A DNA stretch of 64,000 nt from Rhizodiscina lignyota (Eukaryota). The stretch spans positions 2,976,001 through 3,040,000 of the forward strand of contig ML978121.1 in the NCBI GenBank assembly GCA_010015805.1, given 5' to 3'. The notes under the pieces were generated by a model that had not been told where the DNA came from, searched no databases, and worked only from the letters and a program-made list of their open reading frames with translations. Made by a program: the position numbers and the translations under genes. Positions within the stretch are counted from its first letter, which is position 1, and each line of letters begins with the position of its first letter. Of this stretch, positions 1,688-48,735 are shown piece after piece.

Positions 1688-2965
1688 CTACGTATAGGTC
1701 TTGTTGCCGCCCACAGTCTTGGAGCCGTCAAGGTCGGAGTCGACGCGAGGATCGACCTTGTTCATCATGTCTGAGGAGTGAGGACCCGCCGTATCTAAAG
1801 TAGGTAAGCAAAATTAGCACAGCTCTGAGTTTCATGTTTGCACGAGGGATAACATACTGGGCGCAGGGCCTGGAGCACCACTGCCGGTCACACCAGCACC
1901 GTGAGTACCAGCACCATGAGTACCGCTAGTGCCAAAGCCAGCATCACCGTATCCAGCGCCACCAGTAGTACCAGTCACACCTGAGTCGTAAGTGTTGGTG
2001 CCGGTCACGCCAGTGCCATGCGAATGAGTTCCGTGATGATGAGTTCCGAGACCAGCGTCGGCGGTCACATCATTGCCATATGTGTCGGTGACGCCTGCAC
2101 CACGAGTTGCGCCAGTTCCGAAGCCAGTAGCACCACCGGTGCTGTAGCCAGTAGTACCGGATGCGGCACCCAGGTTGCGAGAACCATCGCGGTCAGAATC
2201 GACACGAGGATCGGCCTTGTTTGCTGTGTGTACCGTCAGTAGCAAATTCAACCATTTTCATCGAGTGAATGACTTACCAAGGTTGCTGCTGTGAGGTCCC
2301 GCACCAGTCGACTGAGTGTTGCCCGTCAAGGTACCTCCGGTAGTCGTGCCTCCATAGCCAGCACCAGCACCATAGCCAGAACCAGCACCATAGCCAGAAC
2401 CAGCACCCAAGTTGCGAGAACCATCGCGGTCAGAGTCCACACGAGGATCGGCCTTATTTGCTGTGTGCACCGTCAGTAAGAAGATCATCCCTTTTCATCA
2501 GGTGAACGACTTACCAAGATTGCTGCTGTGAGGTCCCGCATTGGTCGACTGAGTGTTGCCAGTCAAGGTACCTCCGGTAGTCGTGCCTCCATAGCCAGCA
2601 CCGGCACCAGAACCAGCACCCGCGCCATAGCCAGAATTGCCAAGATTGTCACGGCCAGAATGGACACCAGCGCCATGGCCAGCAGCACCATAGCCAGCAG
2701 CACCGGTCGCACCACCCATGTTGCGAGAACCGTCGGCGTCAGAGTCAACGCGAGGATCAGCCTTGTTCACTGTAATGCCATCAGTTTGGGTCGAAATTGG
2801 GCTTCAAGACAATCACTTACGAAGGTTGTTGCCGTGAGGTCCGGCATTGGTCGACTGAGGATTGTCGGTCACAGTGCCTCCGGCCGTGGTAGTGGTGTTC
2901 TGGTGGTGTTCTGGATGCAACGCCTTATCGACGGCTTCCTTAGCCTTGTTGACGAGGCCAGACAT
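1688..2965 (-). CDS. Fungal dehydrin-like (DPR-motif) Gly/Thr-rich stress protein; 5 exons
   Basis: Four repeats of GPHxxNxxNK(A/V)DPRVDSDxDG. Introns at 2770-2820, 2461-2514, 2224-2277 and 1795-1857 give an open frame from MSGLVNKAKEA to NKTYT*. Confidence 0.8.
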
Positions 2966-14231: not shown

Positions 14232-14828
14232 CTCTCACAGCGTTCTTTCGAAAATTCTTTCGGAATTATCGAATAGTTAATGATCGATCGGACACAGACC
14301 AGTCAGAGCAAATCACATGATCTGTTGCATGATTCATGCATAGATTTTCGCTCCGATTCGCCGACTCCGGAAGTAGGTATTTCTATATCTACCACTTCTG
14401 GTCCTCGGTCTTTACGCGCAGCATTTTGGCTATCAAGGAGGACCCACTCTGCGAACGTAACGCGGACAGTTTACTGTTTTAACCACTATCATTAACTCCG
14501 ACGGAGATCGCAGGTTCCCGGCACTCCACGGAGTTGAATCCTTCGTAGGGATCCCGTTGACCTTCCGCATTTGCCCCAAGCGTGGTTGCTTCGGTGGGTG
14601 CCACAACAGTGGTTCTCCTCACGTTTATCAGGCACAGAGTTACAATCAAGCTTCCATCTCATGCGGCCGCATCTCGTAAATGCAGTATGGTATCATAGAG
14701 CGCGCTATATGGCATGATGGCGCGTATTCGTCATTGTCAACAGCCCGAGCTGCAGATTAGCTGTCGTTCGCAGGTAATGTATAGCTATTTCGCGCCTCCC
14801 CGGCATTCTCTTTTTTTCTCTTACTCTC

Positions 14829-16799
14829 ATGCTCTCAGTTGATTTCATGATGCATTTAATCAACCTCTTTTGCCTCTACGCGTCGGGTTTCGCGTCTGTA
14901 CAGGCGCTCTCTGGCCCAATAAGTAGTTCTGATGGCTCAATAGTACGAAGGCAGTCTTCGGGAGATCCATACAAAATTTACACTATCGATCAGCCAGTAT
15001 GTCCTCTACTATTCCAATTTCCTTCGAAATTTAACAATTATGTACAGATTGATCATTTCCCGGACAGCCCCAGATATGAGCCGCACACGAAGGCGACGTT
15101 CAAGCAGAGGTACATCTTTGACAAGACTTACTACAAGCCGGGCGGACCTGTGTATCTCTACATAGGGGGCGAAGTAAATCTTGAGAGTCGTCTAGAGAAC
15201 CTTGAAAGTGGCATCATCAAAATCCTCATGCAAGCTACGGATGGCCTCGGAATTATACTGGAGAACCGGTATTATGGAGAAAGCTACCCTTTCGACACCA
15301 GCACGACAGACCAGCTGGCGTACCTGACTACGGAGCAAACCATTGCGGATAATGCTTACTTCGCGCAGCATGTCACCCTCCCCGGCGTCGAGGGTAACTT
15401 GAGTGCACCAGGGACTCCTTGGATTCTTTACGGGGGCTCTTTGGCTGGGGCTCAGACTGCATTCTCAGTCAAGACGTATGGAGGTAGCGGCACTGGCTTA
15501 CTTTGGGGAGGCATTGCTGCCAGTGGTGTGATACACTCACAGCATGCTTATCCTGAATGGTATGTTATCCCGTGGTGCAAACGTTAAGCCCAGAACTGTG
15601 CTAATTTGGTTCATGTAATTTAGGGTACGTTTCATACCATGCAATTGAGGAACGTACAAGACGACTAACTTGTTCCGGTTGATTGAAGTATAACCCCATC
15701 CAAAAATTTGCGGCTGGGGATTTTAGTATCAGCATCAATGCCATCATCGATAAGATGGACTATCTGGTGGCGCAGAAGAATACGAAAGCGATACAGGAAT
15801 TGAAAGAGATATTCGGCCTTGGAGCATTGAAAGATATTAGAGACTTTGCGATGACTATCGCGTTTCCGCTTGGAGGTCCGTCGTGTACCGTAACCAATGG
15901 CTGAACTAATTGCCGCAGGCCCAATGAACTACCCTACCAGCACGTGGCAAGAGCTGAACTGGTCTCCTCTCTACGGTTCAGACGATTTCTGGGATTTCAG
16001 CAACAACGTCACCCAATTGAACCCTCCTGCAAACAATACCGCCGTCGACCATCAGCTTGCCAAATACACCCATGGAGAGCCTTGGCTGAACTTGGGCAAC
16101 TACGCCGCCTACGTCAAGCGGGTTCTGCTTCCACTGTGCCCCAGCGGAGATTATAACGACGTGACTTGCTTCGGCACGCAAAACCAGACCTTCTATGCCG
16201 AAGTGGCCAACGGCGGATCCCGCAGTTACTTGTATACCACATGTACCGAGATGGGCGTATACCAGGTTGCTCAGCCGTCAGGCCCATCCCTAATCTCCCG
16301 TGTGCTACAGGTTGATTACACTCAGCAGTGGTGTGACTGGGCATTCCCACCAGGGAAATACAACTCCATTCCGAAAAACGGTGCGTACCCTGCTCGTGCA
16401 TATGCTAGTAGTGTACACTCATCAAGTTTTAGGGCCAAATGTGACCTGGTACAACCACTATGGAGACTTCAACTTCAAAGCCGACCGCCTGGCATTTATT
16501 GATGGTGAGTGCGAAACCGCACGTCTTATGACACGGAGGCTTCTTATCAAATCGAACTAATACACGGAACAGGAGAACAAGACGTTTGGAGGGACATTTG
16601 TTACCATTCAAGGGCAGCTCCGAACCCACGGTATTCGAGCGTCGATGGCCTGCACCCAGAGCATCTGATTGCGGGAGCTGGGCATCATTGGGACAGCTAT
16701 GGAATCAACAACATCAGTGCTGAACCTCAGTTCATCCGCAATGCCCACTTATGGGAGATAAGGGTCGTTGACAGATTCTTGGAAATGTGGAGTAAGTAG
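14829..16799 (+). CDS. Secreted serine carboxypeptidase, family S28; multi-intron, including a 1-nt exon at 15624
   Basis: Signal peptide; IDHF, TFKQRY, GGPVYLYIGGE, ENRYYGES, nucleophile GGSLAG, DGEQDVW, GHHWD. Confidence 0.9.
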
Positions 16800-17975
16800 T
16801 TTCGAGAACTTTAGTTATTGTCAAGGCGACCTGAGGCTAATACCGGCATAGAGAACTCCAAATCGAAGCGGGATGAGCTGTAGGAGAGCCATGGATGCAG
16901 AGACCATAGTGTGCGATCAAGGTTAAAGTCGTCCCCGTAAGCTTCGGTAGCCTACCCGATTCGTCAAACTGTCGATGGGGACAGTTGAAGATCAAACATG
17001 AAATATTCTGCACTCCCGGATTTCGACTTGTGCTTGATATATGGTGTATGTCCATCACAAGCAAAGGGATCTGATTTGCAAAGTTTATCAGTGTCTCACC
17101 GCTAAGCAACTCGCACGAGAGTGTCCTGAAGATAAGTTGAGGTTCGTTCGCGTAAATGCACACCCCTGATCGGAAATTTCTGGACAAGCACTCAAAAGCA
17201 GGGACTCATGCAACCTCTTTCTCGTTCGGATCGAGCGCCAAGAATGATCCGCAGGGAAAGGCCAGCCTATCAAATTTCCCTTGGATGTCCGTTGGATGCT
17301 ACCGCTTCAACACACTTTCTGCCAGAGCTCGTCTGCTTTCGCTGCCACAGCCTGTGTTTCTGAGTCCAATCACAACGCATATTGTCTTCTTCTGGGCGAA
17401 AATCGCAAGAATGGTGTGACTAAGGGAAAGGTGCCAAGTTTGAGCCTCCATTTGGTATCTGTGTGTGAAACAGGCTCCAAACTCAACGCAAAGCCCCGGC
17501 TGCTAAACTTGTAAATCCGCGGTGGAGATGCTAGATTCAGAACGACTTAACATGGAATTAGATAACCCGCTAGGTTGAGCGCAATTCAACAAGATCGGTA
17601 TCGACCAAGGCCTAACGTACAAAGCTCAGCCCCTTGCAATAGAGTACTACGCGTCGTCACGAGTTGACATGTCGGAGACTGCATGTCCAATCTCACTTCA
17701 ACTTGCGCAGAGCCGTAAGAAAAGTCTCAATCTTTACTTCCTTTTCAGTGTTTGAGTCTTGCATTAGCTCTGCTGTGTTTTTCAAGCCGACTCCCCCTGT
17801 CATTCTCCGTCGTTAATGAGCAGAGCAATGTTATGCTTGAGGAATTCTCGTGTTGGATAAACAGCATGAGACAATCTGAGGTTGAAGGGAACACACAAAG
17901 TTCTTGGTACGTATCGCGTGGCTGAGGGCAAATTGTTGCGTTGCCGAATTCCATTTGACTCGAACCTTGACAGTT

Positions 17976-43459: not shown

Positions 43460-45178
43460 TTACGCAATGTTTGAGTCCTCCTTTTGTGCCATTTTCAGAC
43501 GGAGACCTACGATACCCACACAAATAGCGCTGACTACGAACATACCAGCGCTCACGAAAAGTGGAAGACCCACCAGGACGTCGATGCGTGTATCCAAGCC
43601 CCATGCTAGTACTTTTGGGAACAAGATGCTTGCTGCCAGCTTTCCGAAGATGCTCGCCATACTGAGAGTCGCCATGACCCGCGCTACCTTTGACCTCTCC
43701 ACCAAGGAGACTATGTAGGCCTGTGTCGCTGGCGGCAGCCCCTCACCGAAGAGATACACGATTACACCTGTGATGAATACAGTGCTCGTATTACTGAATC
43801 CAATGCATAGAGAACCAAGCGTAAGGAGGACGCTGCTGCAAACCATGATGACAAACTGGGCGAGCTGTGACCCAAGCCACGCGGCAGCTGCACGGTTCAA
43901 TGCGGGTAACATAATGGAGAAGTAGATGAGCATGAGGAAGCCCTCCATGCTAACAACCGAGGCAGCTTGCGGAAATGTCCAATGCAGCTTGATGACAGGA
44001 TATTGAACCTATTCATGTGTAGTAAATTAGCACGGCTCTGGTCTCATGTGTGCAGTGCAGGATAACATACCAGAGCGTACCAGTCGATGGCTTTGATTCC
44101 GGTCGCGGCAAAGCAGATGGAGAGAGCTAGAAGGAGGATATTGACAACGCCAACACCGGATACTGCACCAGCGAAACGCTCATAAGCGCCATGCATCCAT
44201 GCGGAGATGAAGGACCTTTTCCTATTTCCTTCCTGCCTGGTTGTGTCCTGCTCGACCGTGGCGTTGCTACGAGCGGCTGTGGCTGATTGTTTCGCTCCTT
44301 GGCTTTCATGCACCGTCTCAGGGAACATGAAAATAGTGATTAGAGCAGTTAGAATTGCGAGGGCAAGGCTAGCGAAGAGATTAATATGAGACGTTCCGCC
44401 TTTACCATCCAGATTCATTATCCATCCTCCGATGGATGGACAAAAAGTCTGTGCAAAGTATTGCATAGATGTAGTCAAGAAGAACAGAGAAGCTCGTTCC
44501 GTCGCAGAGGGCATAACGTCTGAATATGAGGCGAAGAGCATGGCCAAACCGATATCATAATTGCCACCAATTAATCCAGGCGTACCAGAGAGATAGAGTG
44601 TCCATATAGGTACTCTCGGGAATCCAAGATCTGTTCATCTGTCAGCGATTGGCTGGGCCATGGTTGTCGTGAAGCTTACAGAGTACGACCCATACTATGC
44701 AAGTGATGCAAACATTGACCTTGTGCAGAATCAGCACTGGCTTTCTCCCCCATCGGTCTGCTACCCATCCTAGCGGGATTGCTCCAATCATGGCGGAAAG
44801 CATCCGGACGAACATTATCAATCCCGCGCTTTTCGCTAGCTGCTTCTGAATGCTGTCGTCTTTGCACAACGTTTCAGGAATGTGCTTTCCAAGGTCTGCA
44901 AGGGGCGAGTGCCTTGCAGCGTAAAACTCGTAACAATACATAGCTTCGATTGCACGCATCGTTGCAACTTGCTTGACGAAGTACTCCGCTTCATTGATGA
45001 AGATGATGGTACAACCTAGCAAAGGTACCCATCGGTATTTTGGGGAAATGGTTGTGAATCCGAGCCATCTGTAACCTTTGATGGAATCTGCTTTTGATTC
45101 CAAGGATAAGAGACTGTCTGTAGAGTTCTTCCGGGCCAAGAGAGGTTCCTGCTCGCCATTGTTGCTCACGGGCTCCAT
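43460..45178 (-). CDS. MFS transporter; 2 introns
   Basis: Motif A GWVADRWGRKPVL; many TM segments across three exons. Confidence 0.85.
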
Positions 45179-48462: not shown

Positions 48463-48735
48463 CAGGCGCACTCGAGTACGCACTCCTCCCCATTTCGCGA
48501 AATGGAAACGTTTATCGTGAAGTTCGGCGACATTCGCTTTGCGCTAAAAAGGGGTGGCTGTGCACAGATGCCTTTTGACCAATAGATCAATCGCAATGTA
48601 GAGGCAGTCGATACCTCCCCACAGCTTGAGTTAAGGGGGAGGCGCTGAGCATTAGAGCAACAGTGAGATTGCACAGCCGCCCGTTTTTAGCGCAAAGCGA
48701 ATGTCTCCGAATTTCACGCTACTCGAGTGTGCCTG
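48463..48735. mobile_element. 273-bp MITE, Tc1/mariner-type (TA target duplication, 5'-CAG...CTG-3')
   Basis: TA|CAGGCGCACTCGAGTA...TACTCGAGTGTGCCTG|TA. An inner inverted repeat (48516-48564 vs 48670-48718) matches at 45/49. No ORF of note. Confidence 0.75.

Follow-up and report, generated by a model that had tools for sequence, protein, structure and literature searches.

One-base exons have been described in published reports from Arabidopsis (2015), Coprinopsis (2025) and Fusarium (2026). Here we present a further candidate from a stretch of 64,000 nucleotides (nt) of Rhizodiscina lignyota (assembly GCA_010015805.1, contig ML978121.1, positions 2,976,001 to 3,040,000 of the forward strand), which is referred to as the window and in which positions are counted from the first letter. 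The candidate is the single G at 15624 in a gene for an S28 serine carboxypeptidase. This G is very probably a real one-nucleotide exon (probability about 0.8) that lies between two complete introns, termed intron 1 and intron 2 below. One-base exons being already known, the S28 case is an instance of a rare but known phenomenon; no report of such an exon in S28 peptidases was found, in a survey that included no search aimed at S28. Zero-nucleotide recursive splicing at the ratchet points of Drosophila, where an internal AG is used and then the adjacent GT, differs in that no exon base is left, very long introns are removed and the organisms are animals.

In CYP621A of Fusarium, a one-base G exon lies in the string AG/G/GT (slashes mark splice borders here and below), RNA reads run over the joint, and 20 or more orthologs have the exon (PMC12940212; Nelson and Syed 2026). 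The intron pair looks like a single intron of 139 nt, gene callers mis-model the site, and the authors propose that a one-base deletion or frameshift was rescued via a cryptic AGGGT (PMC12940212). As far as the published description goes, the S28 case is alike in several respects: a nuclear gene of a filamentous ascomycete is concerned, the G stands in AG/G/GT, the pair gives the impression of one over-long intron (129 nt, as against 139 nt in Fusarium), and the exon, which falls within a codon of a conserved motif, was recognized from a phase mismatch and intron-free relatives. In contrast to the conserved and RNA-confirmed Fusarium pair, the pair in the window is known from one genome and is read from DNA only. 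The two cases also differ, on the same description, in that relatives of the S28 gene show both a single-intron and an intron-free state, and that one of the two introns has sister copies. The S28 gene would add a second ascomycete gene family with the AG/G/GT signature.

In Arabidopsis APC11, a constitutive one-base exon A was validated with reporters, and the authors argue for sequential removal of the introns, combining intron definition with a recursive-like step (PMC4674806; Guo and Liu 2015). Like the S28 site, APC11 has its one-base exon between GT-AG introns, for which successive removal is argued; unlike it, according to what the report describes, APC11 is a plant gene with A as the exon, has much longer introns and was studied with reporter constructs (PMC4674806). 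A long-read annotation of Coprinopsis cinerea contains 13 one-nucleotide exons in 13 genes, and their omission breaks the frame (PMC12230235). These are also fungal nuclear genes, but of a basidiomycete, and the account, in the part consulted, is a genome-wide long-read tally without the evolution of each case (PMC12230235).

Two further kinds of intron are relevant for comparison. In stwintrons, by definition, an external intron becomes functional only after an internal one has been excised (PMC5639578). They share with the S28 site the presence of two U2-type units at one position and their removal in consecutive reactions, and they have been connected with the gain of introns and with intron shifts by one base (PMC5639578, PMC5587772, PMC7138796). 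Unlike the two units of a stwintron as defined in these reports, the S28 introns lie side by side, each complete, with one base kept between them. The S28 site was considered as a stwintron and rejected as such, as both introns are intact and non-overlapping and no nested GT-AG register restores an external donor or acceptor. An earlier note on this DNA had likened the pair to fungal twin introns; the likeness is an analogy only, the defining dependence of one intron on prior excision of the other being absent. The second kind, introner-like elements, are described as longer than regular introns and as having a stable predicted fold (PMC3609843), and in fungi their gains have been placed at or near ordinary intron positions of other fungi (PMC4457414). 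As with introner-like or sister introns, look-alikes of intron 1 occur in unrelated genes of one genome (PMC3609843, PMC4457414, PMC8469720). They differ from the elements described there in that three copies are present in 64 kilobases (kb), with ordinary lengths of 62-64 nt and no unusually stable fold; intron 2 does not belong to this family.

The S28 gene lies on the plus strand at 14847..16883, and its model has 8 exons and 7 introns (51, 64, 64, 43, 52, 68 and 60 nt). The spliced model is open from the ATG at 14847 to the stop codon at 16881-16883 and encodes 544 amino acids (aa) with a C-terminal RDEL. Exon 2 (15048..15559) ends with ...CCT GAA TG, the last two bases being the first two of a Trp codon. 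It is followed by intron 1 (15560..15623, 64 nt), which begins with GTATGT, carries the branch motif GCTAAT at 15600-15605 and ends in TTTAG; by the lone G at 15624, which is the third base of the Trp codon TGG; and by intron 2 (15625..15688, 64 nt), which begins with GTACGT, carries a perfect ACTAAC at 15664-15669 and ends in TTGAAG. The next exon (15689..15875) restarts on a codon border with TAT AAC CCC (YNPIQKF...). Intron 1 is in phase 2, within the Trp codon, and intron 2 is in phase 0, at the border between the Trp and Tyr codons. Both introns are complete, each having a GT donor, a branch motif and an AG acceptor of its own. The presumed branch A is A15604 in intron 1, 19 nt before its 3' end, and A15668 in intron 2, 20 nt before its 3' end, and in both the acceptor AG is the first AG past the branch motif. 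The layout and coordinates given in the earlier note, with two 64-nt introns that each have a branch point, were borne out base for base.

The flanking reading frames define how many bases have to be supplied between the two outer exons. The upstream open reading frame (ORF; 14778..15587) leaves two codon bases at 15559, and in the downstream ORF (15683..15904) a codon begins at 15689, so exactly one base is needed. Excision of 15560-15688 as a single 129-nt intron leads to a frameshift, as had been claimed before and as these frames confirm. Retention of intron 1 leads to a stop directly after PEWYVIPWCKR, and retention of intron 2 to a TGA after 7 codons. The five other introns of the gene measure 43-68 nt, a range that includes the 64 nt of intron 2 but not 129 nt.

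The identity of the missing base is given by the protein family. Of 1716 candidates in a search with the exon 2 protein, 295 had E <= 0.001. The 120 best of these 295 matches were listed; they show 65-78% identity, and the named ones are nearly all from ascomycete fungi. Of the best 120, the 76 with 500-570 aa were used for alignment, shorter and longer proteins being omitted as likely fragments or fusions. Across the junction, the block Y-P-E-W-Y-x-P-I-Q is free of gaps in all 76 homologs, and the junction Trp and the following Tyr are each present in 75 (Phe in the remaining one in either case). In a tblastn comparison, the high-scoring segment pair (HSP) of exon 2 extends to 15563 and that of the next exon starts from 15689 on the same query residue, which means that no residue is missing or extra at the junction. 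As Trp has only one codon, the missing base must be G. Judging from the sequence, the mRNA must read TG+G+TAT, the only joint that gives the conserved peptide.

The position of intron 1 is also found in relatives. A metagenome scan yielded 51 environmental loci that encode S28 relatives, and 49 of them cover the junction. In 22 of the 49 loci, a single insertion of 46-58 nt occurs exactly at TG/../G inside the Trp codon. Twenty of these 22 introns are GT-AG, one is GC-AG and one is without AG, and the base that follows is G in all 22, matching G15624. A further 26 loci have no insertion past the Trp position (24 with TGG, one with TAG and one with TTC), and one locus (L016) has an intron further downstream. 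An intron between the Trp and Tyr codons, as intron 2 is, was seen in none of the 49 loci. This is the ortholog comparison that the earlier note had suggested for dating intron 2, and from these alignments the intron 2 position is lineage-specific, in the sense of being unseen in the 49-locus sample. The GTACGT donor and the AAG acceptor are each used by introns of related loci.

A separate line of evidence for the border at 15623 comes from copies of intron 1, for which the search covered the 64-kb window. Short-word BLAST of intron 1 against the window gave a match at 1857-1811 on the minus strand (85% over 48 nt), which belongs to the 63-nt intron X (1795..1857, minus strand). A profile made from intron 1 and X then found the 62-nt intron Y (44009..44070, minus strand; matched at 44070-44009). 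X connects two in-frame parts of a Gly/Thr-rich repeat protein, both of which bear NK-x-DPRVDSD-x-DGS, while Y connects, in phase 0, two long open frames of an MFS-like transporter gene, on which Pfam MFS_1 scores E 3.3e-07 and 30 bits, below the cut-off of 33.4. The three introns can be aligned end to end, GTATGT and the closing AG included, with intron 1 identical to X in 51 of 64 columns and to Y in 44 of 64; the third pairwise identity is 45/64. With nhmmer, the three members have E values of 6e-19 to 1e-16 and the next match in the window has E 1.8; comparing the window with itself gave no more than nine repeat pairs, intron 1, X and Y among them. The likeness ends exactly at 15623, and 15560-15623 is thus a complete intron unit with its 3' border fixed. 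On sequence likeness, intron 1, X and Y are taken as a small sister-intron (introner-like) family with three copies within the window, and its members, being 69-80% alike, would be old or degenerate. The family profile gave no match in the 51 related loci (best E 1.4).

Intron 2 has no such relatives. With nhmmer against the window it matched only itself, and no relative of it was found in the related loci, which also have no intron at its position. Its local alignment score with intron 1 is 14, where shuffled sequences give 12.5 +/- 2.1 and 269 of 1000 score as high; against the preceding 64 nt, 39 of 500 shuffles score as high; and nothing stood out when intron 2 was compared with the 128 nt downstream, with the exon before it or with the other five introns of the S28 gene. 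The possibility that intron 2 is a tandem duplicate or a member of the intron 1 family was rejected on these shuffle-level scores and the lone self-match. No significant fold was found in intron 1, intron 2, X, Y or the 129-nt block (z -1.10 to +0.91); the family copies have z-scores of +0.91, +0.24 and +0.01, that is, no stable predicted fold. A 9-base-pair hairpin over the intron 2 donor (z -1.10) is matched by 27 of 200 shuffles that fold as well, and it was not used to argue for an order of splicing.

The remainder of the gene was examined for signs of decay. Pfam family PF05577 matches exon 2 with E 1.8e-24 and a later exon weakly, with 17.8 bits under the 25-bit cut-off; the 61-aa piece past the junction has no Pfam match. 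The GGSLAG motif, invariant in the homolog alignment, is present in the window protein; we take its Ser to be the catalytic nucleophile of the S28 peptidase. At the 146 columns with at least 95% conservation, the window model agrees at 141, and the 76 homologs agree at 130-146 (median 145). Judged by its sequence, the gene does not look decayed and appears otherwise intact. Two Cys that are conserved in 74 and 75 of the 76 homologs are replaced by Phe233 and Ser311, which are encoded in the exons 15689-15875 and 15919-16380, and the other five conserved Cys are kept. The double replacement looks like the joint loss of one disulfide, the pairing being a guess.

Several findings weigh against a one-base exon, and they are considered here together with the explanations that they favor. 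The single-intron pattern is not enriched in the window (20 observed; shuffles give 19.3 +/- 4.7), which leaves the motifs by themselves as weak evidence; the strict pattern of two introns one base apart occurs once on both strands of the window and 0.01 times per dinucleotide shuffle (once in 100), and the weight of the case comes from its position in a conserved codon. When single GT-AG introns with a donor at 15441-15640, an acceptor before 15800 and open frames on both sides were enumerated, 27 were in frame and stop-free. All but one remove or change part of the conserved block. The exception is a canonical, weak-donor intron of 125 nt (donor GTTATC at 15564, acceptor at 15688), which keeps the whole block and adds one Tyr (PEWYYNPIQK); an automated gene caller could choose it. 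It predicts the junction GAATGGTATTATAAC, whereas two introns predict GAATGGTATAAC. We consider the 125-nt intron very unlikely, since its extra residue is found in none of the 76 homologs, its donor has no G at +5 and lies 4 nt past the strong GTATGT, and it leaves unexplained the internal branch motif with AG/G/GTACGT, the match of 15560-15623 to two complete introns and the TG/../G intron of 22 loci. The same mature mRNA, GAATGGTATAAC, would also result from a single non-canonical excision of 128 nt, for example GT-AA at 15560-15687 or TA-AG at 15561-15688, which would involve no one-base exon; GTAT is repeated at 15560-15563 and 15688-15691, and five registers of the excision give the same TGGTATAAC. 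None of these registers has consensus ends, and each needs at least one non-consensus splice site where two fully consensus introns are available. Moreover, the first AG past the first branch motif is already reached at 15622-15623, and the internal signals and the border homology of intron 1 would have to be coincidence, which makes a 128-nt excision highly improbable. The earlier note had regarded TG+G+TATAAC, giving PEWYNPIQK, as the only one of the GT-AG options it checked that restores the frame. That this joint does so stands, but the uniqueness does not, as both the 125-nt GT-AG intron and the 128-nt excisions, which arise from the GTAT repeat and yield the same mRNA, had been missed.

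The locus might also be broken, with a 64-nt insertion or a 129-nt intron leaving a frameshift, and the gene being a young pseudogene or mostly spliced unproductively. Joining donor 1 to acceptor 2 indeed shifts the frame, with a stop about 37 codons on, and the loss of two otherwise conserved Cys allows for some relaxed constraint. Yet no stop interrupts any other exon, the protein retains 141 of the 146 strongly conserved columns, the change of both Cys is like the loss of a pair, as far as the presumed pairing holds, and an unspliced chance insertion that carries GTACGT and ACTAAC and ends with its first AG on a codon border is not to be expected; a broken locus is therefore judged unlikely. 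Least credible is a one-base assembly error that makes a normal single intron look like two. The run of G at 15623-15625 is an indel-prone kind of place, but a contig built from DNA run X1, the sole run listed for the window, covers 14848-16884 at a word depth of 159 with 0 differences and 0 gaps. X1 is possibly the source of the window assembly, and the contig is then not fully independent; with that caveat, it speaks against an assembly indel at the acceptor, which the earlier note had named as grounds for giving up its reading. A one-base change would, in addition, not erase the second donor, the second branch motif or the length of 129 nt. A further point against the one-base exon concerns history, which is ambiguous. 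A tree of 50 junction-region sequences (117 columns; 44 different rows, as the loci include near-identical copies) places the window together with 8 intron-free loci in a group with support 98/87, and the next neighbor, L001, is also intron-free at the junction codon (82/87).

With these alternatives weighed, we return to the one-nucleotide exon. It would be constitutive and would complete, as third base, an almost invariant Trp codon. U2-type introns are generally recognized by intron definition, and each is removed in its own two-step reaction. On this general knowledge, the two complete U2-type GT-AG introns of the S28 gene would leave in separate, consecutive reactions through branch points A15604 and A15668, and during either reaction the other, unspliced intron would act as flanking 'exon' sequence. 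With only one base between the end of intron 1 and the start of intron 2, two spliceosomes could hardly act simultaneously; the bases that the factors holding the 3' exon of intron 1 need at ligation would be needed as well by those that hold the donor of intron 2 and its 5' exon. The context of the intron 1 acceptor is TTTAG/G in either order of splicing, and that of the intron 2 donor is AGG/GTACGT while intron 1 is present and TGG/GTACGT once it is gone. Either order would be chemically possible, and our guess is that intron 1 leaves first, being transcribed first. Ordered two-step splicing had been proposed earlier. The part that concerns separate reactions is supported by the gap-free junction in 76/76 homologs, the intron in 22/49 loci and the sister introns, but the order is not fixed by the sequence, as both introns have intact signals. 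Were donor 1 spliced to acceptor 2, the G would be lost and the frame shifted.

The pair may have arisen by gain of an intron one base from an existing one, and two courses can be envisaged. In one, intron 1 would be old and retained, as it shares its position with the intron of 22 loci, and intron 2 would have been gained beside it. In the other, the old intron would have been lost and both introns gained, intron 1 from the look-alike family, since the tree groups the window with intron-free loci, sister copies exist and further introns of the gene are at unusual positions; reported introner-like gains at or near ordinary intron positions, as far as they are described, point the same way (PMC4457414). 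Accordingly, intron 1 may have been gained anew instead of having persisted as the old intron. A frameshift rescue of the Fusarium type would need a long ancestral intron, and among the 22 loci with an intron at this codon none has one; gain of one intron beside another accounts for the data better than rescue via a cryptic AGGGT. A tentative and rather doubtful extension is that the locus records the birth of a one-base exon, with a multiplying introner-like family, a new intron one base from another and fast intron turnover. If so, one-base exons would be a by-product of intron gain near splice sites and not of frameshift rescue. In that case, the abutting splice sites would force the introns to be removed strictly in sequence, and skipping of the G would yield a built-in unproductive isoform. 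The co-occurrence of intron-free relatives, one-intron relatives and look-alike intron copies makes the origin of such exons testable.

An automatic model of this S28 gene would probably be truncated, carry a frameshift or contain one residue too many, and the expectation in the earlier note that gene callers go wrong at this site is plausible. Similar sites could be screened for as over-long introns with an internal AG-N-GT, their own branch motif and a phase mismatch.

Other introns of the gene were compared with the related loci junction by junction and partly by eye. The introns at 15876-15918, 16381-16432 and 16505-16572 (plus strand) are at unusual positions: an intron at codon 438 is present in none of the 28 loci that cover this codon, and those at codons 284 and 462 are a few bases off positions used in other loci (gaps read by eye). 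The intron at codon 50/51 is common to 21 of 24 loci. The unusual positions suggest a high intron turnover in the lineage of the window.

Some of the related loci have peculiarities of their own. In L010 (891-1038), which is in the sister group of the window, an apparent 6-nt micro-exon, TACCAA, lies between introns of 52 and 90 nt; it yields MNYPTNTWQELNW, as in homologs, and the first intron has a weak donor (GTCAAA). L003, L018 and L026 each carry a single intron no more than a few bases from this site. In L008 (3499-3501), TAG stands in place of the Trp codon TGG of the others, and in L051 (138-193), a near copy of L042 and L043, the intron ends in GG instead of AG. The oddities of L008 and L051 may be due to pseudogenes, variants or read errors.

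At the C-terminus of the S28 protein (16852-16883), RDEL is shared by 15 of the 77 aligned rows, and other rows end in HTEL, HSEL or KDEL. Tails of the RDEL/KDEL type act in retention in the endoplasmic reticulum, and such a retention-like tail is found here in a family annotated as extracellular. Elsewhere in the window, the Gly/Thr-rich gene that contains intron X has internal repeats at 2145-2883 on the minus strand (89% over 234 nt), and an inverted repeat pair of 52 nt is present at 48513-48564 and 48670-48721 (90%).

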